In this document: piece after piece, positions 1,768-60,286 of the stretch
How the letters are laid out: the number at the start of each line of letters is the position of its first letter
Position numbering within the stretch: the stretch's first letter is position 1
Assembly: GCF_014698145.1 (NCBI RefSeq)
Contig: NZ_JACJSM010000001.1
Span: 280,633-344,632 of the forward strand
Direction of reading: 5' to 3'
DNA: 64,000 nucleotides
DNA from: Oscillatoria sp. FACHB-1406
GTDB taxonomy: Bacteria > Cyanobacteriota > Cyanobacteriia > Cyanobacteriales > Spirulinaceae
Position numbers and translations under genes: made by a program
Notes under the pieces: model-generated
What the model saw: only the letters and a program-made list of their open reading frames with translations
Database searches by the model: none
Told to the model about the DNA's origin: nothing

Positions 1768-3757
1768 GGCGCGCGATCGCTTTACCGTGAAGTTGCGCGC
1801 GCCGCAAACCGCCGTTCCAGAAGCGATTGGCGCGATCGCAACACGCCCAATTCCCCAAACCGAACTCTTTATCGTTCGCGTTGCCTCAGAACGCCTCGAG
1901 GAGGCAATGGCGATCGCGCGCCGCCTCGATAGTATCGCCTTTGCCAGTCACGTCTACCGCATGGCTAACAGCGCCGATACCTACGTTTACCTAACTGACG
2001 AACTGACGCTCCAATTTACCCCAGATCTCGCTGCTGACGCGATCGCAGCCTTAGTTGCGCCCTGGCAACTCCAACGTCAACAAGCCATTGAAGGCATCCC
2101 CAACGCTTTCGTCTATCGCCTCACCACCCAAACCGCCGAAAACCCGCTCAAAATCGCCAATCGACTCAGCGGACAACCGGAAATTTTGACCGCAGAAGCT
2201 AACATTATCGTCCGTCGCGATCGCTTTTATCGCCCCAAAGATTCTCTCTATCCCAAACAATGGTATCTCTACAATCAAGGCGGTTCTCAACTTGCTGCCA
2301 ATTCTCACATCGAAGTCGAGAAAGCGTGGGATATAACGCGCGGCGAACGAACGGTAGTCGTAGCGATTGCCGACGATTCCATCGATCTCAACCATCCCGA
2401 CTTTCAGGGTAAAGGTAAGATCGTTAGCCCTCGCGATCTTCGCGATAATGATTTTTTGCCCCTCCCCGAATCCGACGACGACAATCATGGAACCGCTTGT
2501 GCGGGCGTTGCTGTTGCTGAGGAAAATGGGAAAGGGATTGTGGGGGTTGCGCCCGGTTGTGCGTTGATGCCAATTCGCACCACGGGCTATTTAGATGACA
2601 GTTCGATTGAAGATTTGTGCGATTGGGCGATCGCAAAAGGTGCAAGCGTGCTGTCTTGCAGTTGGGGGGCGGCAACGATTAACTTTCCCCTGTCTCTGCG
2701 CCAGCGCGCCGCCCTCCACCGCGTCACGACGCAAGGACGCAACGGTAAAGGTTGCGTGGTTCTGTTTGCGGCGGGCAATTCCAATCGTCCGGTGAATGGT
2801 AAGATTTTCGAGCGCGAGTGGCCGCAAAATGTTTTGCAAGGGCCGACGCAATGGTTGTGCGGATTTGCTGCCCATCCTGACGTTATCGCGGTTGCGGCGA
2901 GTACCAGCCTCTCTCATAAAGCCGCTTACAGCAATTGGGGCGCAGAAATTGCCTTGTGCGCGCCGAGTAATAACGCGCCACCGGGGATTTGGTTCGAGCA
3001 AACGGGGTATATTTATACGGCTCCTGCGATCGCGGCGAATTTGCCGGGACAGGGCATTTTTACAAGCGATCGCGTCGGTAACGCCGGATATGATGTCAGC
3101 GATTTTACGGGCGATTTTGGCGGCACATCTAGTGCAACTCCAGTTGTTGCTGGCGTTGCAGCCCTCGTTCTTTCGGCAAATCCCGAACTGAACGCCGTGC
3201 AAGTCAAGCAAATTTTGCAACAAAGTGCTGATAAAATCATCGATCCGAATTCCGATCCGCAGTTGGGAATGAGGCTCGGAACCTACGACCAAAATGGTCG
3301 TTCTCAGTGGTTTGGAGCCGGTCGCGTTAATGCTTTCAAAGCGGTGAAATTGGCGCGGGAACAGCTTCAAACCCTGCCTTCCGCATCCTCCCCCATTAGT
3401 GCCGTCAGTCGCCCCTCTCTCGCCATTCCCGATGGAAATGAAGCAGGGATTCTCAGCCGCATTGCGGTGAGTGGTGCGGGAACGGTGGGGGATATTCAAG
3501 TTAGCGTTGCGATCGATCACGAATTTCTAGGCGATTTGGAGATTTATTTGCGTCCGCCTTCGGGAGGTGCGATCTTGCTGCAAGGTCGGACTCTTGGTGC
3601 AAACACCCTACTGCGTCGAACGTATACGGCCCTCTCGACTCCGGCGCTGCAACAGGCTTTGGGACAAGCAAGGGCGGGAAATTGGGACTTATGGATCGTG
3701 GATTGCGCGATCGGCGATACGGGAATTTTGCAAAGTTGGGAATTACAATTGGGTTAA
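1652..3757 (+). CDS. S8 family subtilisin-like serine peptidase with a C-terminal proprotein-convertase P-domain
   Basis: Asp/His/Ser triad motifs: VAIADDSIDLNHPDF, DNHGTACAGVAVA and GTSSATPVVAGVAALV. The C-terminal roughly 110 aa resembles a P/Homo-B domain. The true start is uncertain. Confidence 0.85.
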   Translation: MLTLNPEFEVPASSEMAGVAEENIGAILQRGGGELPLTKARDRFTVKLRAPQTAVPEAIGAIATRPIPQTELFIVRVASERLEEAMAIARRLDSIAFASHVYRMANSADTYVYLTDELTLQFTPDLAADAIAALVAPWQLQRQQAIEGIPNAFVYRLTTQTAENPLKIANRLSGQPEILTAEANIIVRRDRFYRPKDSLYPKQWYLYNQGGSQLAANSHIEVEKAWDITRGERTVVVAIADDSIDLNHPDFQGKGKIVSPRDLRDNDFLPLPESDDDNHGTACAGVAVAEENGKGIVGVAPGCALMPIRTTGYLDDSSIEDLCDWAIAKGASVLSCSWGAATINFPLSLRQRAALHRVTTQGRNGKGCVVLFAAGNSNRPVNGKIFEREWPQNVLQGPTQWLCGFAAHPDVIAVAASTSLSHKAAYSNWGAEIALCAPSNNAPPGIWFEQTGYIYTAPAIAANLPGQGIFTSDRVGNAGYDVSDFTGDFGGTSSATPVVAGVAALVLSANPELNAVQVKQILQQSADKIIDPNSDPQLGMRLGTYDQNGRSQWFGAGRVNAFKAVKLAREQLQTLPSASSPISAVSRPSLAIPDGNEAGILSRIAVSGAGTVGDIQVSVAIDHEFLGDLEIYLRPPSGGAILLQGRTLGANTLLRRTYTALSTPALQQALGQARAGNWDLWIVDCAIGDTGILQSWELQLG

Positions 3758-13591: not shown

Positions 13592-14575
13592 ATGTTGGTA
13601 CTTGAGGCAAAACTTGAGGGATTGAAAGAGCAGTATGGCAAGCTTGATGAAGCTATTCGCACTGCTCGTTTTGTCCGCAATTCTTGCCTGAGATACTGGA
13701 TGGATAACCGCGATATCGGACGATACGATTTGAGTGCATATTGTGCTGTTTTAGCGAAAGAATTTGCTTGGGCAGGTCAACTCAACTCTCAAGCTAGACA
13801 AGCTTCGGCTGAAAAAGCATGGTCGGCAATTGCCAGATTCTTTAATAACTGCAAAAAGAACAAACCAGGGAAAAAGGGCTATCCAAAATTCAAAAAAGAA
13901 CAGACTCATGGTTCTGTTGAGTACAAAGCCACGGGCTGGAAACTTTCTGAAGACAGAAGATACATCACTTTTACTGATGGGTTTGGTGCAGGTATTTTCA
14001 AGATGTGGGGTAGTCGCGATTTGCATTTCTATCAGTTGAAGCAAATCAAACGAGTCAGAGTGGTTCATCGTGCAGATGGCTACTATGTTCAGTTTTGCAT
14101 CAACCAAGAAAGGCTTGAGAAAAAAGAACCAACCTTTAAAACTATTGGTCTTGATGTTGGACTGACTAATTTTTACGCCGATAGTAATGGGCAAACAGTT
14201 GAAAACCCAAAGCATCTGAGAAAGAGCGAGAAGTTGCTTAAACGTCTTTCTCGTCGTCTGTCTAAGACCCAAAAAGGGTCGAAAAATCGAGCTAAGTTTA
14301 GAAATAGACTGGCAAGAAAGTGCCTCAAAGTAAGCACCATCCAACGTAAAGATTTTGCTGTGAAGTTGGCAAGATGCGTAGTCCAGTCTAACGACTTGGT
14401 GGCTTATGAAGATCTGAGGGTGAGGAATATGATTAAAAATCGGCATTTGGCTAAATCTATTAGCGATGCCGCCGGGACAACTTTCCGTACTTGGACTGCA
14501 AGCGAAATCTACGCGATCGCTACTCCCAATCAACGATCGACAAGATCGACGGTACTTGCCCAAAGCGCTTAAATA
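13592..14575 (+). mobile_element. tnpB: IS200/IS605-family TnpB (OrfB, RNA-guided-nuclease family) that is 3'-degraded, with no TnpA partner
   Basis: RuvC-I region IGLDVGLTNF and RuvC-II region VAYEDLRVRNMIKNRHLAKSISDA. The ORF ends at 326 aa without the CxxC zinc finger or RuvC-III. A +2 frame continues RDRYSQSTIDK... (dPryTSQ-like) and then stops, indicating a frameshift plus truncation. Confidence 0.7.
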
Positions 14576-14686: not shown

Positions 14687-15799
14687 ATGTCATCTGTTGA
14701 ATCTCGCGCTGCCGCTACAGAAATGGATTCTTCCAAGCACGGTTTACCCGTAACCATTATTACGGGATTTTTGGGAAGCGGTAAAACCACATTGCTCAAT
14801 CATATTTTATCCAATCAAGAGGGTTTAAAAACGGCAGTTCTCGTCAATGAGTTCGGAGAAATTGGCATCGATAACGAACTGATTGTCACCACCGATGAAA
14901 ATATGGTGGAGTTGAGCAATGGCTGTATTTGTTGCACGATTAACGAAGATTTAGTTGATGCCGTTTATCGCGTTCTCGAACGGGAAGATAAGATCGATTA
15001 TTTAGTGGTAGAAACGACGGGGCTGGCGGATCCGTTGCCGGTGGCGCTGACATTTTTAGGCACGGAGTTGCGCGATATGACGCGCTTGGACTCGATCGTT
15101 ACAGTCGTCGATTCAGAAAATTTTAGCTTAGATTTATTTAATAGCGAAGCTGCCTACAGTCAAATCGCCTACGGCGATGCGATTATTTTAAATAAGATCG
15201 ACTTGGTGGATGAAGGCGATGTCGATTCTTTAGAAATTAGAATTCGCAGCATTAAATCCGATGCCAGAATTCTGCGATCGAAAAATGCGGAAGTGCCGCT
15301 GCCGTTAATTTTAAGTGTGGGTTTGTTTGATTCCGATCGCTATTTTAATGAAGAAGCAGAGGATGCGCACGGACATCATCACGACCATCATCACGACCAC
15401 GACCACGACCACGATTGCCACGATCCTCATTGCGAGAATCCGGAACATCATCATCACGACCATGACCATGACCACCACCACCACCATCATCACTCCAATC
15501 ATTTAGAGAATGATGGGTTTACCTCCATATCTTTCAGAAGCGATAAGCCTTTAGATATTCGGAAGTTTCAAAGTTTTCTTGACAATCAATTGCCGAGTAA
15601 TGTGTTCCGGGCAAAAGGAATTCTTTGGTTCCAAGAAAGCCCGAACCGTCATATTTTCCATTTAAGTGGCAAGCGTTTTTCGATTGATGATGATGATTGG
15701 GGAAATAAGCCTCGGAACAATCAACTCGTTCTCATCGGGCAGGACTTAGACCATCAGAAGTTACGCGAGCAATTAGAAGCTTGCGTTATACCAATTTAA
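14687..15799 (+). CDS. COG0523-family GTPase (CobW/ZigA-like putative zinc metallochaperone) with an extreme His/Asp-rich insert
   Basis: P-loop GFLGSGKTTLLNHIL, the CxCC motif SNGCICC, and HGHHHDHHHDHDHDHDCHDPHCENPEHHHHDHDHDHHHHHHH. Confidence 0.85.
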   Translation: MSSVESRAAATEMDSSKHGLPVTIITGFLGSGKTTLLNHILSNQEGLKTAVLVNEFGEIGIDNELIVTTDENMVELSNGCICCTINEDLVDAVYRVLEREDKIDYLVVETTGLADPLPVALTFLGTELRDMTRLDSIVTVVDSENFSLDLFNSEAAYSQIAYGDAIILNKIDLVDEGDVDSLEIRIRSIKSDARILRSKNAEVPLPLILSVGLFDSDRYFNEEAEDAHGHHHDHHHDHDHDHDCHDPHCENPEHHHHDHDHDHHHHHHHSNHLENDGFTSISFRSDKPLDIRKFQSFLDNQLPSNVFRAKGILWFQESPNRHIFHLSGKRFSIDDDDWGNKPRNNQLVLIGQDLDHQKLREQLEACVIPI

Positions 15800-16074: not shown

Positions 16075-16302
16075 GGGCATAGCAGTGCTCATGGGTGTCA
16101 ACTTAGGGTGAAACCCCCCTCAGAAAGTTGAATCGCCCTCACCCCCAGCCCCTCTCCCAACCCTGGGAGAGGGGAGCACAAGAGAGAATTCTTCTCCCCC
16201 CTCGCCCAAAATTGGGAGAGGGGGGTCGGGGGGGTGAGGGCTGGGATGACGCTATAACAATCACTCGTGCTTAAGTTGACACCCATGAGCAGTGCTATGC
16301 CC
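16075..16302. repeat. MITE family C (about 228 bp) with 28-bp TIRs GGGCATAGCAGTGCTCATGGGTGTCAAC / GTTGACACCCATGAGCAGTGCTATGCCC. The interior is rich in GGGAGAGGGG/CCCCTCTCCC palindromes.
   Basis: Perfect TIRs visible. An inverted degenerate copy lies at 50752-50965. Confidence 0.65.
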
Positions 16303-24613: not shown

Positions 24614-25837
24614 ATGGTTCTAAAAATCAAGGGCGCGGAATCTAGGTGGAAGAATTTGCCGATGTCGAAGTCCGGCAGTCGAATCGCGATCGCGCTATGT
24701 GTTCTCGGACTCGCGACCGTCGGTGGGGGGCTATTCTACAGCCTGAAAATGAGTCGTAAAGAGCCGACAGCAGCGCCAACGCCCGTTGCTTCGCCCGTTG
24801 TCACCGCCGTTACCGCCCTCGGTCGCCTTGAACCACAAGGAGAAACGATCGTGGTTGCGCCGCCACCGACGTTAGGGGCAGCAAAAATCGCCCAACTGTT
24901 AGTGAAACAGGGCGATCGCGTGGCAGCCCAACAAACCATTGCAATCTTAGACGATCGCGATCGCCTTGCGGCAGCTTTAGATCGGGCTAACAGCGACGTT
25001 GAAGTTGCGATCGCCAACCTGCAAATCGTGCAAGCGGGGGCAAAAACGGGCGATGTCAATGCCGCCCGCGCCAACATCGCCCGCTTAGAAGCGCAACTGC
25101 AAGGCGAAATGACCAGCCAACAAGCGACGATCGATCGCGTCGCTGCCGAAGTTCGTAACGCTGAAAGCGAGTACCAGCGCTACCAGCAACTCGCATCCGG
25201 GGGCGCAATCGCAGCCATCGAAGTCGATCGCCGCCGCCTAGAACGCGACACCGCCCGCGAAAGTCTCAACGAAGCGATCGCCAAACGCAACCAAACCCAA
25301 AATACCTTACAACAACAAATTAAAGAAGCGCGCTCCACCCTCAATAGTGTCGCCGAAGTCCGTCCCGTCGATCTCGTTAAAGCCAGCGCAGAAGTCGAGC
25401 GCGCCCGCGCCGCCGTCAAACAAGCCCAAGCCGAGTTAGCCCAAGCTTACGTTAAAGCACCCGTCAGCGGACAAATCCTTAAAATCAATACCCGTCCCGG
25501 TGAAAGTGTCGGACAAACGGGGGGAATCATCGAAATCGGGCAAACCGATCGCATGGTTGCAGTCGCCGAAGTTTACGAAAGCGATATCGGTAAAGTTAAA
25601 GAAGGCCAAAGCGCGATCGTTAAAAGCGAAAACGGTTCCTTTAGGCAATCCTTAAAAGGTGTTGTTTCTGAAATCGGCTTGCAAATCGGCAAACGCAGCG
25701 TCCTCGAAACCAATCCTGCTGCCGATGTTGATGTTCGCGTTGTCGAAGTCAAAATTTTGCTCGACCCCGCCGATAGCCAGCGCGTTTCTAGTTTAACCAA
25801 TGCCAAAGTCTTAGTTGAAATCCAGCTTAATTTGTAA
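24614..25837 (+). CDS. devB: HlyD-family membrane fusion protein of a DevBCA-type ABC exporter
   Basis: N-terminal TM segment, long coiled coil, and barrel-sandwich hybrid motifs. Confidence 0.8.
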   Translation: MVLKIKGAESRWKNLPMSKSGSRIAIALCVLGLATVGGGLFYSLKMSRKEPTAAPTPVASPVVTAVTALGRLEPQGETIVVAPPPTLGAAKIAQLLVKQGDRVAAQQTIAILDDRDRLAAALDRANSDVEVAIANLQIVQAGAKTGDVNAARANIARLEAQLQGEMTSQQATIDRVAAEVRNAESEYQRYQQLASGGAIAAIEVDRRRLERDTARESLNEAIAKRNQTQNTLQQQIKEARSTLNSVAEVRPVDLVKASAEVERARAAVKQAQAELAQAYVKAPVSGQILKINTRPGESVGQTGGIIEIGQTDRMVAVAEVYESDIGKVKEGQSAIVKSENGSFRQSLKGVVSEIGLQIGKRSVLETNPAADVDVRVVEVKILLDPADSQRVSSLTNAKVLVEIQLNL

Positions 25838-25980
25838 TTCGTAATTCGTAATTCGTAATTCGTAGTTCGTAATTCGTAATTCGTAATTCGTAATTCACCA
25901 TTCATCACTCGTAATTCGTAATTCACCATTCATCACTCATAATTCATAATTCCCCCATTCATAATTCATCATTCATAATT
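25838..25980. repeat. tandem heptamer array (AATTCGT)n with decayed distal units, STRR-like
   Basis: About 9 perfect units that overlap the devB stop codon, degenerating into aattcat/cattcat units before the devC start. Confidence 0.7.
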
Positions 25981-38712: not shown

Positions 38713-40077
38713 TCAAACTTTATCTTTTTCTCTCGCCCATAACATCACATCATCTTGTTGATATTTCAGTTGAAAGTGTGACGTTTTTTCAATGCGATCG
38801 CGCAATCCTTCCACTGTTCCCAGCGAACTGTTCCAACCGGGATGTCTGATGTTTAGCAGCACGTAATCGAAGGGTTCGAGCGGAATATTGCGATTCTCAT
38901 CGAGTGCGAGTTTAAGCAGGGGACGATGGGCGAGATGGGGGGCGATTTGCGAGGCGGTGAGTACGCCGCCTTGAGTATTAATTTGTGCGATCGCGCCCCG
39001 CGTGGCTTGCCAAGTGTCGATACTTTCGAGGTATTGCGTCCAAAACAGACCGAATTTTGCTAAAGCAAGAAAACAGATTGCCGCCCAAACAACGATCCAG
39101 TGCGGACGTTTTAGCCAACTTTTTTCCGATGAAAGTGAGGCTATAACTGCGAATAATAAAAAGGGCAAAGCGGGTAGCGAATATTGATGCACTAAGTCTT
39201 TTTGGGCGGGACTGGCACTCAATAAATTTAAGCCTACAGTGGGGATAATCCCCCATAATGGTGTTAAATTTTGCCAAGAAAGTCCCCAAATTATGGGGAT
39301 AAATAAAAGAATAAGATAAAATAGATTGGGAAGGGTAAAGATTTGCTGTAGAACTAATCCCGGTTCGAGCAAGAGATTGAGGATAATCTCTGAAACCGAG
39401 TTGCCCAAAACACTATAACGATTGACGGCGGCAGCTTCGCGACCGCTGAAGGCAGGAATAATCAGTTGAGTTGAAACAATAAACCAGACAATTCCGATCG
39501 CGATCGCAATTCCCCCGTAACTTCGCTTCTTCTCAAACAATAACAGCCAAATTCCCATCGCCGCTACCGTTAGCGATAGCACCGCCTTGGTACTTAAGAT
39601 TAAAAGAACGCAAGCGCAATACAAAACTATTTTTCCTGCCCTCGCCGCCCATACTGCCCCAAAAATCGCCGGAATCGCCAACACTTCTGGGTGAAAATCG
39701 AACAAGTTGACGTTAAAAACGACCGGATAGAGCCAATAAACCCCTGCGATCGCGAGCGATTGAGAGCGAGTTAACCCCGCTTGCAGCGCGACTTTTTCCG
39801 TCAGCCAACCGCCCGAAGCGAGGGCGATCGCTTGCAGCAAAAATAACCAATAAACGCTGGGATAAATCTTGTAGAGGAGCGCAATCGGATACAGGATAAA
39901 GGCAGCATGATCGCCGAGGAGATGATGTCCGATAAGAGTAACAATCGGGACTCGGTTAACGCTCAGTAAATAAATGCCTTGGTCGAAGATTGATAAATCG
40001 AAGGCACTGGATTGAAACAGGAGATGGCGCAAGCTGCTGCATAAAAATAGAACCGCAGCGCTAACGGCGGTCAACAT
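38713..40077 (-). CDS. polytopic integral membrane protein (possible DUF2079/glycosyltransferase-39-like)
   Basis: At least 10 predicted TM helices and a C-terminal soluble domain. No catalytic motif identified. Confidence 0.4.
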   Translation of the reverse strand: MLTAVSAAVLFLCSSLRHLLFQSSAFDLSIFDQGIYLLSVNRVPIVTLIGHHLLGDHAAFILYPIALLYKIYPSVYWLFLLQAIALASGGWLTEKVALQAGLTRSQSLAIAGVYWLYPVVFNVNLFDFHPEVLAIPAIFGAVWAARAGKIVLYCACVLLILSTKAVLSLTVAAMGIWLLLFEKKRSYGGIAIAIGIVWFIVSTQLIIPAFSGREAAAVNRYSVLGNSVSEIILNLLLEPGLVLQQIFTLPNLFYLILLFIPIIWGLSWQNLTPLWGIIPTVGLNLLSASPAQKDLVHQYSLPALPFLLFAVIASLSSEKSWLKRPHWIVVWAAICFLALAKFGLFWTQYLESIDTWQATRGAIAQINTQGGVLTASQIAPHLAHRPLLKLALDENRNIPLEPFDYVLLNIRHPGWNSSLGTVEGLRDRIEKTSHFQLKYQQDDVMLWAREKDKV

Positions 40078-40200
40078 AATTCGTAATTCGTAATTCGTAA
40101 TTCGTAATTATTCCCCCACGATTGAAGTCAACATAATTCGTAATTCGTAATTCGTAATTCGTAATTCGTAATTCGTAATTATTCCCCCACGATTGAAGTC
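40078..40200. repeat. tandem duplication of two units, each (AATTCGT)n plus ATTATTCCCCCACGATTGAAG. The second unit re-copies the first 8 nt of the upstream gene start (tcaacATaatt).
   Basis: Unit 1 carries 3 heptamers and unit 2 carries 6. The duplicated ATG-containing octamer is visible. Confidence 0.6.
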
Positions 40201-50751: not shown

Positions 50752-50965
50752 AAGCATAGCACTGTTCATTGGTGTCAACTTAAGCACGAGTGTTTGTTAT
50801 AGCGTCATCCCAGCCCTCACCCCCCCGACCCCCCTCTCCCAATTTTGGGCGAGGGGGGAGAAGAATTCTCTGTTGCTCCCCTCTCCCACCGGTTGGGAGA
50901 GGGGCTGGGGGTGAGGGCGATTCCGCTTTCTGAGTGGGTTTCACGTTAAGTTGACACTAATGCCC
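50752..50965. repeat. MITE family C copy 2 (inverted relative to 16075-16302, with degenerate termini)
   Basis: Interior is the near-exact reverse complement of the 16100-16290 copy. The left TIR has 3 mismatches and the right TIR is truncated. Confidence 0.55.
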
Positions 50966-52360: not shown

Positions 52361-52404
52361 TACACAGTTTAAGCCAAAAGGACTCTGGGAGCGAGGGGGA
52401 GATT

Positions 52405-52720
52405 GGGGGAGGGGGTGAATAATGAATAATGAATGATGAATAATGAATAGGGGGAGACGAGGAGACGGGGTGAATAATGAATGATGAATAATGAATAGGG
52501 GGAAACGAGGAGACGGGGTGAATAATGAATGATGAATAATGAATAATGAATAGGGGGTGAGGGGGTGAGGGGGTGACGGGGTGAATAATGAATGATGAAT
52601 AATGAATAGGGGGAGACGAGGAGACGGGGGGACTGGGAGACGGCGCTTCGACTTCGCTCAGCGCACCGGGAGACTGGGTTACAAATTACGAATTACGAAT
52701 TACGAATTACGAATTACGAA
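52405..52720. repeat. complex tandem array: about four 48-bp units (TGAATAATGAATGATGAATAATGAATAGGGGGAGACGAGGAGACGGGG) followed by (GAATTAC)5
   Basis: Visible periodicity. The array ends at the pyk stop codon. Confidence 0.65.
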
Positions 52721-54139
52721 TTAGATCGTGTGAATTTTGAGGAAGTTTGTTCCCCTGACCTGCTGGACTGGACTGCCGCCCAAGATTAATATCTTATCGT
52801 TCGCTTGCACCATTCCGCGCTGTTGCAAGCACTCCTCGATCGCGATGACGAGAGATTCCACCGAGGCGATATCTTGCTCCAACAGAATCGGGATCGCGCC
52901 CCATACTAAATTGAGGCGATGATAGACGCGGGAATCGGGAGTGAAAGCCACGACGGGAACTTTCGGGCGCTCGGCGGCGGCGAGTTTGGCGCTGTATCCC
53001 GTGGTCGTGTAAGCGCAGATATAGCGCAAATCGAGGATTTTGTCAAGGGTTGTAATCGCTTCGCTTAAGGCGTGGGGATCGGTGATTTCGTCCGGTGGCA
53101 GATTGTCGAACTGAAGTTCCGGTTCGATGGTTGCGGCGATGCGTCCCATCATTTTTACCGCTTCAACCGGGAATTTCCCCACGGCAGATTCTCCCGACAG
53201 CATCACCGCATCCGTCCCATCCAAGATCGCATTGGCGACATCGCTGGCTTCCGCGCGCGTCGGACGGGCATTTTCTATCATGCTTTCGAGCATTTGCGTG
53301 GCAGTAATGACGGGAATTCCGGCTTGATTGCAAGCGCGAATAATTTTCTTTTGCAGGAGGGGGACGCTTTCGGGTTTGAGTTCTACGCCTAAATCGCCTC
53401 GGGCAACCATAATGCCATCGCACACCTTCACCAGTTCCTCGAGATGATTAATGGCTTGGGGTTTTTCGATCTTGGCAATGACGGGCGTATCGAATGCGCC
53501 TCTTTCCTGCAAAAAGTCTTTGAGAATGCGGATATCGTCGGCACTACGCACGAAGCTTAACGCCACCCAGTCGATTCCTTGTTCGAGACCGAATTCTAAA
53601 TCTCGGCAATCTTTTTCGGTCATTGAAGGCAGACGCAGGTTTAAGCTGGGGAAATTGACTCCCTTACGACTTTTCAGCAAACCGCCGCGAACCACTTTAC
53701 AGACGACGTTGGGGGGTTCAACCGCGATCGCTTGCAACTCCAATTGTCCGTCATCAAGGAGAATCGGCATTCCCGCATAGGCTTCTTCCGCGACGAAGGG
53801 ATAATCGATGGGGATAACTCCGGGATCGCCGTCAAACTGTTCGAGGGGAACGAGGGCAATTTCCGAACCTTCTTCCAACGCGATCGCGCCGTTCGGAAAC
53901 TGCCCCACCCGCACTTTCGGCCCCTGCAAATCTTGCAGCAGCGTCACTGGCGCATCTAATTCTTCTGAAATCTCTCTAAGCAGTTTAACGGTTTTGGCGT
54001 GGTCTTCGTAGCTGCCGTGGGAAAAGTTCAGCCGCGCCACTGCCATTCCCGCTTCAATCAGTTGGCGTATCACTTCTGGACTATTGCTAGCTGGGCCGAT
54101 GGTAGCGACGACTTTGGTGCGATGGGATAAGGGCAACAT
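52721..54139 (-). CDS. pyk: pyruvate kinase
   Basis: [36 protein letters not shown] ... [10 protein letters not shown]. Confidence 0.9.
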
Positions 54140-54494
54140 TCGTGAAGAGTGAGGGGCGAATCGGTAAATCTGTGTTTCGCCACTCTAGCAAATGCGACCT
54201 AATTTGTCTGTGTTAATGCTTACTGAAAAGGTGGGAGTTGACACCAACGATCGCATTCGCCCGCGCCGTATACTTCACGCCGACACAAAATGCTATATCG
54301 CTGTTTTTGAGGGGATGAAGTATACCAGATAGGCGCAAGCCGCCGCGCCTCTAACCGTTGTGTTTTTGAAGGTGTATTCGATCCCAATTCTCAATCGCGA
54401 TCGCTATTCAATCGAGATTGACTTTCGTTAGAAGATATTTTTAAGTCGAAAAATTAAGAGGGCATAGCAGTGCTATGCCCCTACGTTTTTATTT

Positions 54495-54822
54495 GATTCC
54501 ATTCAATTGGTTTCTCCAGCGAGTGGAGAAGACACAAAATGTATTTGATTCCAATTACTCCAGTTCCGTTTCCATTCAATTGGTTTCTCCAGCGAGTGGA
54601 GAAAAATAGCGGGCGCGCCACAGGATGCTGAGATTGCAGTTTCCATTCAATTGGTTTCTCCAGCGAGTGGAGAAAGTACAAGCCTACTTGCTAGCAAAAG
54701 ACTATCGACAGGTTTCCATTCAATTGGTTTCTCCAGCGAGTGGAGAACCTCGTTGTTCCGTTTGCCAACAATGTTGCCCTTGTTGTGTTTCCATTCAATT
54801 GGTTTCTCCAGCGAGTGGAGAA
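54495..54822 (-). CRISPR. orphan CRISPR mini-array of 5 repeats and 4 spacers. The repeat is GTTTCCATTCAATTGGTTTCTCCAGCGAGTGGAGAA (36 bp); spacers are 37, 35, 37 and 39 bp. The first repeat (54495-54530) is degenerate. No cas genes lie within the window.
   Basis: Four identical repeats at 54568, 54639, 54712 and 54787, plus one degenerate copy. Internal hairpin TTCTCCA-gcgag-TGGAGAA. Strand is inferred from the degenerate distal repeat and from the reverse complement ending ...ATTGAATGGAAAC. Confidence 0.85.
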
Positions 54823-55398
54823 GGCTACCCTTTCAAAGCCTCACCCAGAGCAAGTTCCAGATGCGGTTTTCGAGGGGGTGCTTCTATCATACCCTGAAAC
54901 CTCAAAAAAGACTCGCGTAAAACGGCTGAAAGCTTTACTGGGAGGAATATCGAGGGGGTCAACGAAAGAATGCGGGTTTCAGCGATTTTCCGACTCCCTC
55001 GCAAACTGATGATACAAAATCGATCGCGAGGAAAAAGGCGCGGCGGGCTGTAACGTTGACTCCCCAGTTGTTTCGCGGCGGTTGGTGCGTTTTGGGCGCG
55101 CACCCCACGGCGACGGCGCAATGCCACTCTGTGCGGTACAAAGGGCGCTTTTTCGTGGCAATCTGTTATTTGTCTCAATAAGCCAATATCCAAAATATCT
55201 ATCTAAATCGGTTATATCCTTTAAATGAAGGGCATCTTAGTGGCTGGGTTACAAGATTCAAGATATTGTCTTTTTAGAGAATCTCTCAAAAGTAGGCGAA
55301 ATGAGGAGGCTAGGGATTTTGGATTCCCCAAATCCTGCGACGAACTTTCGAGCCACCTATCCCGACTCTATTGTTAAAATGAATCGGACTCCGGCTTC

Positions 55399-55580
55399 TA
55401 TAGCAGTTTTTACGTGAGTGAGGTACAACCAATGGGCGCAAGCCTTGCGCCCCTAACGATTTGATTTACAAAAGATTCAGGGAAAATCTCTCCTCTTTGT
55501 ACAACCAATGGGCGCAAGCCTTGCGCCCCTACCGATTTGATTTTGGAATCTGTACCTCACGCATAGGAAAAACGCTATAT
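55399..55580. repeat. MITE family A copy 2, with the internal hairpin module duplicated
   Basis: TATAGCAGTTTTTACGTGAGTGAGGTACA ... 2x CAATGGGCGCAAGCCTTGCGCCCCTA(A/C)CGATTTGATTT ... TGTACCTCACGCATAGGAAAAACGCTATAT. Confidence 0.6.
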
Positions 55581-55600
55581 CCGTAAGGAATCTTAAAAAA

Positions 55601-55720
55601 CCTCTCCCCGTCCCCCCGTCCCCCAGTCTCCCCGTCCCCCCGTCCCCCCGTCCCCCAGTCCCCCCGTCTCCCCAGTCCCCCAGTCCCCCAGTCCCCCCTC
55701 ACCCCCTCTCCCCACCCCTC
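55601..55720. repeat. STRR1-like heptamer array (CCCCAGT/CCCCCGT/CTCCCCGT) immediately upstream of the 1274-aa ORF
   Basis: About 14 consecutive C-rich heptamers. They explain the spurious Gly-rich reverse-strand ORFs at 55529-55934. Confidence 0.7.
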
Positions 55721-60112: not shown

Positions 60113-60265
60113 ATATAGCGTTTTTCTTTTGTGTGAGGTACGGATCCAAAAATGAAATCGGTAGGGGCGCGGATTTCGAGGTCGCCTCGAAATTAAACGC
60201 CGCCCCGTAGGGGCGAATGGTATTCGCCCGCTGGGTGTACCTCATTCATGTGAAAACCGCTATAT
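60113..60265. repeat. MITE family A copy 3 (full-length TIRs ATATAGCGTTTTTCTTTTGTGTGAGGTAC / GTACCTCATTCATGTGAAAACCGCTATAT)
   Basis: Longest TIR match of the three copies. The internal module is GGGGCGAATGGTATTCGCCC. Confidence 0.6.
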
Positions 60266-60286
60266 TCGAGGTCAGGAGTTCGAGTT

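Follow-up and report, generated by a model that had tools for sequence, protein, structure and literature searches.

In a 64-kb stretch of Oscillatoria sp. FACHB-1406 DNA (hereafter the window), a small CRISPR array lies among MITEs with no cas genes in the surrounding sequence, raising the question of which system the array belongs to and whether it could still be served by one. The original prediction placed five 36-bp repeats, four identical and one degenerate, together with four unique spacers at 54495-54822, and regarded the array as an orphan of Cas6-type (class 1) origin that was read from the minus strand.

An array with a full-length leader

A plus-strand repeat scan recovered the predicted five 36-nt repeats and four spacers at these coordinates (five matches, against none in 100 shuffles). 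The plus-strand repeat is GTTTCCATTCAATTGGTTTCTCCAGCGAGTGGAGAA, with exact copies starting at 54568, 54639, 54712 and 54787 (Table 1), while the leftmost repeat, at 54495, carries a single mismatch (GaTTCC) and is the sole mutated copy and the one farthest from the leader, amounting to one substitution across 180 nt of array repeats. From left to right the spacers measure 37, 35, 37 and 39 nt. The locus displays the generic hallmarks of CRISPR: three or more direct repeats of 23-47 nt that are nearly identical, unique spacers of comparable length between them, and a leader on one side opposite a degenerate terminal repeat. Elsewhere in the 64-kb window there was no second CRISPR-like array, and no further copy of the repeat or the leader was found.

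Table 1. Coordinates of the array, its leader and neighbouring elements within the window.
Feature	Position	Strand	Remark
Pyruvate kinase, left neighbour	52721-54139	-	Downstream of array on same strand
Perfect palindrome GGGCATAGCAGTGCTATGCCC	54460..54480	.	14 nt beyond terminal repeat; terminator-like on both strands
Terminal (trailer-end) repeat, 1 mismatch to consensus	54495..54530	-	Farthest from leader, as expected for oldest repeat
Spacer 1 (oldest), 37 nt, local-sequence mosaic	54531..54567	-	Shared 12-mer and 11-mer
Repeat 2, exact consensus	54568..54603	-	Repeat scan
Spacer 2, 35 nt	54604..54638	-	Unique; no protospacer found
Repeat 3, exact consensus	54639..54674	-	Repeat scan
Spacer 3, 37 nt	54675..54711	-	Unique; no protospacer found
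Repeat 4, exact consensus	54712..54747	-	Repeat scan
Spacer 4 (leader-proximal, newest), 39 nt	54748..54786	-	Unique; no protospacer found
Repeat 5, leader-proximal = first repeat	54787..54822	-	Repeat scan
Full-length family leader, about 185 nt	54823..55007	-	HMM match and conserved columns
-10 TTGAAA, non-canonical	54831-54836	-	Repeat-proximal block of leader; without TANNNT
-35-like CTGGAA	54855-54860	-	Repeat-proximal block of leader
Three CGAGGGGGT-type motifs in leader	54870-54879, 54950-54959, inverted at 54993-55001		
MITE-A copy, leader-side border of locus, outside CRISPR module	55399..55580	.	29-nt inverted ends

The trailer-most spacer, counted among the four unique ones in the original prediction, is not clean foreign sequence. 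Spacer 1 contains an exact 12-mer, TATTTGATTCCA, identical to 54490-54501, where the trailer flank meets the terminal repeat, as well as an 11-mer, GACACAAAATG, that recurs at 54282-54292. Its composition suggests that it is probably a decayed or rearranged unit, and, given that it is a mosaic of neighbouring sequence, just three spacers look like clean acquisitions. Searches for protospacers yielded no match to the array spacers among INPHARED phages, and the matches of the array to plasmids in PLSDB were driven by the repeat only. Six exact half-spacer scans of IMG/VR with spacers 2-4 returned three matches, none of which extended past the seed; with identities of 26/35, 21/37 and 26/39, these were rejected as chance. 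No self-target of the array spacers was present in the 64-kb window.

To the right of the array lies a leader that is recognizable across a wider family of arrays. A leader HMM of 190 positions, built from 24 cas2-adjacent leaders located between cas2 and the array, matched the window at 54825-55007 over positions 3-184 (89.9 bits, E 1e-27), and similarity of the window to other loci ends at about 55005-55021. In 62 other family leaders, 36 alignment columns reach a conservation of 90% or more, and the window leader keeps 35 of them (family median 36, 5th percentile 30). In cas-linked relatives, cas2 always lies on the side equivalent to the window array's right flank, with 187-232 nt between its stop codon and the first repeat. 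The position of the leader and of the cas2 side to the right of the array thus indicates that the array is read on the minus strand, placing the newest spacer at 54748-54786 and the mutated terminal repeat at 54495. This is the orientation that had been predicted, and the right-side leader, the degenerate repeat on the left and the arrangement of the cas2-adjacent relatives all concur with it. TANNNT is found at the -10 position of 51 of 64 family leaders, compared to TTGAAA in the window leader. Boxes of the TTCAAT/TTGAAT kind stand in front of large cas-linked arrays with 18, 58 and about 91 repeats (loci L071, L100 and L134), so the non-canonical -10 is not decisive and is not read as a sign of promoter death.

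Repeat family and RNA hairpin

Sequence comparison assigns the array to the type III-Bv family, which resembles CRISPR3 of Synechocystis PCC 6803 and combines Cmr2-6 with Csx18-Cas1-Cas2, without Cas6. In crRNA sense the window repeat reads TTCTCCACTCGCTGGAGAAACCAATTGAATGGAAAC and is identical at 30/36 positions to the Synechocystis CRISPR3 repeat, GTCTCCACTCGTAGGAGAAATTAATTGATTGGAAAC (PMC3575380), and at 34/36 positions to those of several Nostoc arrays and an array from a Chroococcales MAG, together with one solo repeat of Almyronema. It fits the III-Bv repeat pattern in crRNA sense, GTCNCCACTCG..GG.GAAA..AATTGA.TGGAAAC, and carries the same base at all 19 columns that are invariant in an alignment of 31 variants, the window's own included. 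A sensitive DNA search of PLSDB with the array detected arrays on 17 cyanobacterial plasmids, including pSYSA, where the match coincides with the position of CRISPR3 and adjoins cas2-cas1-csx18 and cas10/cmr3/cmr4/RAMP genes. An array on a Nostoc plasmid is accompanied by the same gene set, and cmr6 is likewise among the genes beside the plasmid arrays; in window orientation the pSYSA and Nostoc plasmid repeats read GTTTCCAATCAATTAATTTCTCCTACGAGTGGAGAC and GTTTCCATTCAATTAGTATCCCCAGCGAGTGGGAAT, respectively. The degenerate family pattern occurs at a minimum of 120 stretches (>= 120) in cyanobacterial species-representative genomes, with repeats differing from that of the window by 2-7 mismatches, and the near-exact repeat (33-nt core) was found on three metagenome contigs. 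In Rfam, no family reached its gathering score, and only noise was returned at E<=10.

One of the three metagenome contigs, an environmental III-B locus (L123, Ga0105044_10070234), has a 35/36-identical repeat directly downstream of cas2, along with a truncated cas1 and a CARF-HEPN gene. A second environmental III-B locus (L134, ERZ26165376 contig) has a 33/36-identical repeat in about 91 copies, is preceded by a TTCAAT-type -10 box resembling that of the window, and encodes Cmr3, Cmr4, Cmr5, Cmr6, Csx1, a Csm6-like protein, Csx18, Cas1 and Cas2, with no Cas6. Both differ from the window array in being cas-linked, and neither has a spacer in common with it.

The counterpart from the model system, CRISPR3 of pSYSA, shares with the window array a 36-nt repeat of the same family, with a hairpin at the 5' end and a tail without pairing that ends ...AUUGAnUGGAAAC (12/13 identical in the tag region). 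Its leader flanks the array on the corresponding side and contains the -35-like CTGGA block as well, and its spacers span 35-47 nt, a range that includes the 35-39 nt of the window array. In contrast, CRISPR3 has 38 spacers rather than 4, its -10 box is TAAAAT rather than TTGAAA, and it is located on a plasmid directly beside csx18-cas1-cas2 and cmr2-6, whereas the window array is chromosomal and lies between pyk and a GH2 gene.

[quoted passage not shown] Across the family this hairpin is upheld by a compensatory change from C4-G16 to U4-A16, present in 7 of the 31 repeat variants; 98.9% of cells are paired, and none of 500 shuffles reached the observed covariation score. The exchange is informative because the scan pattern admitted all four base combinations at this pair. 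Type III-Bv repeats have been defined by a 5' hairpin (nt 2-18) and, downstream of it, an A/U-rich 3' half without base pairing that contains the RNase E site and the 13/14-nt tag (PMC12464536). The window repeat shares this layout of hairpin and tail, with a tail, ACCAAUUGAAUGGAAAC, that is less A/U-rich than the Synechocystis tail. The end of the tail, ...ATTGAATGGAAAC, is the counterpart of the 13-nt Synechocystis CRISPR3 crRNA tag AUUGAUUGGAAAC, with agreement at 12/13 positions (PMC3575380).

Previous work on Synechocystis has reported that CRISPR3 transcription starts 1 nt upstream of the first repeat, that its crRNAs carry this unusual 13-nt tag and accumulate at 48 and 42 nt, and that they are unchanged in knock-outs of all three cas6 genes and lost in a cmr2 mutant (PMC3575380). 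PMC12464536, citing Behler et al. 2018, describes the 5' hairpin at nt 2-18 as the element through which RNase E identifies its substrate, with cleavage taking place in the single-stranded tail, 13/14 nt from the 3' end, and gives RNase J a share in maturation. A Cas6 substrate would instead have its hairpin right before an 8-nt handle, and Cas6 would be encoded in linked loci. The window repeat lacks this layout, and none of the cas-linked relatives L001, L002 and L134 encodes Cas6. The attribution to class 1 in the original prediction is therefore upheld, while its Cas6-type component is not supported, given the 5' hairpin with 17 nt downstream, the cognate loci without Cas6, and the maturation by RNase E and RNase J in Synechocystis.

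Cas genes, neighbourhood and satellite arrays

The cas-linked arrangement of type III-Bv, in which the array adjoins csx18-cas1-cas2 and cmr2-cmr6, does not occur in the 64-kb window. Cas10, Cmr3, Cmr4, a Cmr5-like protein, Cmr6, Csx18, Cas1, Cas2 and a WYL protein from two cas-linked relatives were used as tblastn queries against the whole window; the best match had an E value of about 0.2, with none below 0.1 and nothing beside the array, and no remnant of cas2 or cas1 adjoining the leader was found. PADLOC analysis of 51 window ORFs returned a single Cas-like match, to Cas12f models at 5e-86, for the ORF at 13592-14572. Its candidacy as a Cas12f/Csx1 cas gene was rejected, as Pfam identifies it as OrfB_IS605, a truncated IS605 TnpB located 40 kb from the array. 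The earlier statement that no cas-like ORF lies in the 64 kb is accordingly true of genuine cas genes. The plus-strand repeat has a Cas12a-like 3' hairpin, and the right neighbour of the array, a 1274-aa protein, was considered as a hidden effector of Cas12 size; this too was rejected, since Pfam detects GH2 domains in the protein. Beyond the window, neither the closest Cas2, that of L123, nor the closest Cas1, that of L134, retrieved a FACHB-1406 protein among the best 120 of 225 and of 856 matches, respectively, while other FACHB strains were listed; this constitutes weak negative evidence.

Pyruvate kinase and a GH2-like protein had been named as the neighbours of the array, in agreement with our annotation. 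In the nearest available relatives (pyk 74-75% identity), the array is absent upstream of pyk and the upstream genes are unrelated, implying that the insertion is specific to the window lineage. The palindrome preceding the array does exist, at 54460-54480 rather than at the predicted 54464-54484, and it corresponds, as had been proposed, to the fused tips of the inverted repeats of MITE-C, copies of which are located at 16075-16302 and 50754-50957. On the minus strand it forms a 10-bp stem followed by CTTAATTTTT. The predicted MITE-A copy near the array was likewise found (Table 1), with relatives at 60113-60268 and 672-780, and in the pyk-side flank positions 54254-54297 match a MITE-A end. 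The MITE statements of the original prediction are correct; any tie between these elements and the array would be conjectural.

To place the isolation of the array in context, we considered a sample of 54 family arrays from cyanobacterial genomes, each with an identifiable leader and no less than 700 nt of flanking sequence. A full cas2 adjoins 24 of these, only a cas2 fragment (a 33-73-aa 3' piece) adjoins 8, and 22 have none. With 30/54 lacking an intact adjacent cas2, cas-less satellites are normal in this family; they range from 1 to 41 repeats. In two complete genomes, the chromosomes of Egbenema sp. (L039/L071) and Microcoleus sp. GLPB (L054/L095), one cas-linked and one remote family array coexist. 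More generally, filamentous cyanobacteria typically carry multiple orphan arrays, which have been ascribed to array fragmentation and shown to undergo processing by Cas enzymes encoded at a distance (bioRxiv 10.1101/2020.04.14.041012). The free-standing arrays CR_1, CR_5-8 and CR_10-11 of Anabaena sp. PCC 7120 (bioRxiv 10.1101/2020.04.14.041012, and Hou et al. 2019 as cited there) are comparable in that their repeats are common to cas-linked arrays elsewhere; they belong to the Cas6-dependent I-D and III-D groups, whereas the window array is of the Cas6-less III-Bv group. The window array is an ordinary, well-preserved satellite of a known family, in a setting where cas-distal arrays have already been described, and taken alone it is one more such array in a phylum where they are frequent. 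Its modest value is as an example that fragmentation into satellites extends to the III-Bv family, which lacks Cas6, and that such satellites can retain the whole, strongly conserved 190-nt leader.

Possible service in trans and alternative explanations

Based on the data presented above, we favor, with a probability of roughly 0.55, the explanation that the array is a cas-distal III-Bv satellite with a complete leader that is served in trans by Cmr and Cas1-2 encoded elsewhere. Minus-strand transcription would be driven by a promoter in the repeat-proximal leader, with a start site near 54823, about 1 nt ahead of the first repeat, and the transcript would pass the four spacers and reach the hairpin at 54481-54459. 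Each repeat RNA, UUCUCCACUCGCUGGAGAAACCAAUUGAAUGGAAAC, would fold its 5' hairpin (nt 1/2-18/19), and the precursor would be processed by the host's RNase J and RNase E instead of a Cas6, with a predicted RNase E cut in the unpaired 3' half leaving the 13-nt 5' tag AUUGAAUGGAAAC. A Cmr (Cas10-Cmr3-4-5-6) complex would then take up the crRNAs, and Csx18-Cas1-Cas2 would add new spacers, with the genes for both located on a plasmid or in another part of the genome. Since housekeeping RNases carry out maturation in this family, the Cmr complex and Cas1-Cas2 would be all that a satellite requires in trans. For Oscillatoria sp. FACHB-1406 itself, we infer transcription, RNase E processing and a cognate Cmr/Cas1-2 locus by homology with Synechocystis CRISPR3.

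Several observations count against service in trans: there is no cas gene within 64 kb, the -10 is non-canonical, no protospacer was found, the oldest spacer is a mosaic, the best 120 Cas1 and Cas2 matches include no FACHB-1406 protein, and the array is absent at the pyk of relatives. A less probable alternative is a recently orphaned relic, in which the leader-array module was copied or left behind, the III-Bv cas genes are gone, and the array is silent or its RNA useless; the intact look would then reflect too little time for decay. This explanation draws on the lack of cas genes in 64 kb, the absence of FACHB-1406 from the best 120 of 225 Cas2 and 856 Cas1 matches, the non-canonical -10 hexamer, an array reduced to three clean spacers plus one mosaic, and the lack of conservation upstream of pyk in relatives, and also on the state of the locus with the closest repeat, L123, which is itself decaying, with cas1 down to a 56-aa ORF. 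However, a leader and repeats so close to perfect speak against an old relic, and 35/36 invariant leader positions with one substitution per 180 nt of repeat fit either selection or a very recent origin. Furthermore, complete genomes carrying this family contain cas-less satellites side by side with cas-linked arrays, and published work disfavours the non-functionality of cyanobacterial orphan arrays (bioRxiv 10.1101/2020.04.14.041012).

It is very unlikely that, in place of a III-Bv Cmr complex, some other effector in the genome uses the array, for instance a further type III or type I-D system equipped with its own Cas6, or a CRISPR-associated transposon. Both type III complexes and such transposons are known to borrow crRNAs from other arrays (see also PMC11300857), and several CRISPR systems are often present in one cyanobacterium, but the repeat and leader are specific to III-Bv, every cas-linked example is accompanied by Cmr genes and csx18-cas1-cas2, and the window repeat has no Cas6-type hairpin directly before an 8-nt handle. 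The MITE copies and the MITE-derived palindrome around the locus, together with a first spacer made of local sequence, might also suggest that this is not CRISPR at all, but rather a MITE-derived or otherwise structured tandem repeat whose regular spacing arose by chance. Homology of the repeat and leader effectively refutes this interpretation: the repeat is 30-35/36 identical to those of bona fide cas-linked arrays, and the adjoining sequence corresponds to the 190-nt leader of the family (E 1e-27). In addition, neither repeat nor leader recurs in the window, and Tandem Repeats Finder reports no simple tandem array.

Among the family arrays we also noticed copies that retain a 3' cas2 fragment, as well as units composed of a leader and a single repeat. 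These could be taken to mean that III-Bv leader-repeat modules duplicate and seed new chromosomal arrays, with the satellites serving as memory for plasmid-borne Cmr systems that are easily lost and regained, a speculative scenario that we consider unlikely. The flanking MITEs might have helped to place the leader-repeat module at this site. Finally, the three CGAGGGGGT-type motifs of the leader may be candidate protein-binding or integration signals, and the family-wide conservation of the leader, these motifs included, is possibly worth a study of its own.

Leader and possible origin of satellite arrays

In the III-Bv repeat family, the leader (approximately 190 nt) is conserved between cyanobacterial orders, as seen for the window array (54823-55007) and the leaders at L003-L125 (sampled loci of the family, mostly from cyanobacterial genomes). 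Sequences from Symploca sp. SIO1C2 (L006) are 100% identical to the window leader over a 30-nt stretch. Within the leader, a CGAGGGGGT-type motif occurs three times, twice in direct and once in inverted orientation, and the conserved leader bearing these motifs could represent a protein-binding or integration signal.

In the family sample, cas2 survives beside the leader of some arrays (L016, L023, L060, L074, L090, L093, L097, L115, and L120) as no more than a 33-73-aa 3' fragment, and at five loci (L014, L058, L064, L109, and L112) the entire array consists of the leader and one repeat. The occurrence of both arrangements suggests that satellites, the family arrays lacking adjoining cas genes, originate by duplication of a segment spanning the 3' end of cas2, the leader, and the first repeats. 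It also suggests that family arrays are able to collapse to a single repeat.

Decay at related loci and a possibly phage-borne mini-array

L123, the metagenomic locus whose repeat is closest (35/36), retains an intact cas2, but its cas1 is reduced to a 56-aa C-terminal ORF (3153-3323); the adaptation module is decaying next to an intact CARF-HEPN gene. A mini-array of the family, comprising 3-4 repeats with the family leader, was also identified on an IMG/VR contig classed as viral (L133, IMGVR_UViG_3300021392_000005), and no Cas homologue was detected on this 12-kb contig. This mini-array could be phage-borne, or it could lie on a piece of host DNA at the edge of a prophage.

Repeats and mobile elements in the window

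The trailer end of the window array appears to be rearranged. The oldest "spacer" (54531-54567) contains an exact 12-mer, TATTTGATTCCA, that copies the junction between the trailer flank and the terminal repeat (54490-54501), as well as an 11-mer, GACACAAAATG, also found at 54282-54292 within a MITE-A end remnant.

Two MITE-like families are present in the window: family C (about 228 bp, inverted ends GGGCATAGCAGTGCT..., two copies, 93% identity) and family A (about 180 bp, two internal GGGCGCAAGCCTTGCGCCC palindromes, three copies or fragments). The short tandem repeats flanking the array locus are of a typical cyanobacterial kind, and those downstream of pyk mirror the C-rich repeats of the GH2 side.

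Positions of motifs, repeats, and MITE-like elements
Feature	Position
CGAGGGGGT-type motifs, window leader	54870-54879; 54950-54959; 54993-55001
MITE-like family C	16075-16302; 50754-50957
MITE-like family A, copies/fragments	55399-55580; 60113-60268; 672-780
Tandem heptamers (TAATTCG)n, two sites	25828-25950; 40077-40200
C-rich 8-nt repeats CCCCCAGT/CCCCCCGT, upstream of GH2 gene	55595-55707
G-rich/AATGAAT repeats, downstream of pyk	52394-52643
L133 mini-array (reverse-complement coordinates)	about 620-1100

An ORF at 13592-14572 (+), encoding 326 aa, matched PADLOC Cas12f/Cas14c models at 5e-86 and also Pfam OrfB_IS605. Profile coverage limited to positions 15-296 of 389 and the lack of a zinc-ribbon match identify this ORF as a truncated TnpB from an element of the IS200/IS605 type. 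A CobW-family GTPase gene (14687-15799) contains an internal 12-nt periodic coding repeat (15347-15510) that is CAT/CAC/GAC-rich, corresponding to a His/Asp-rich stretch.
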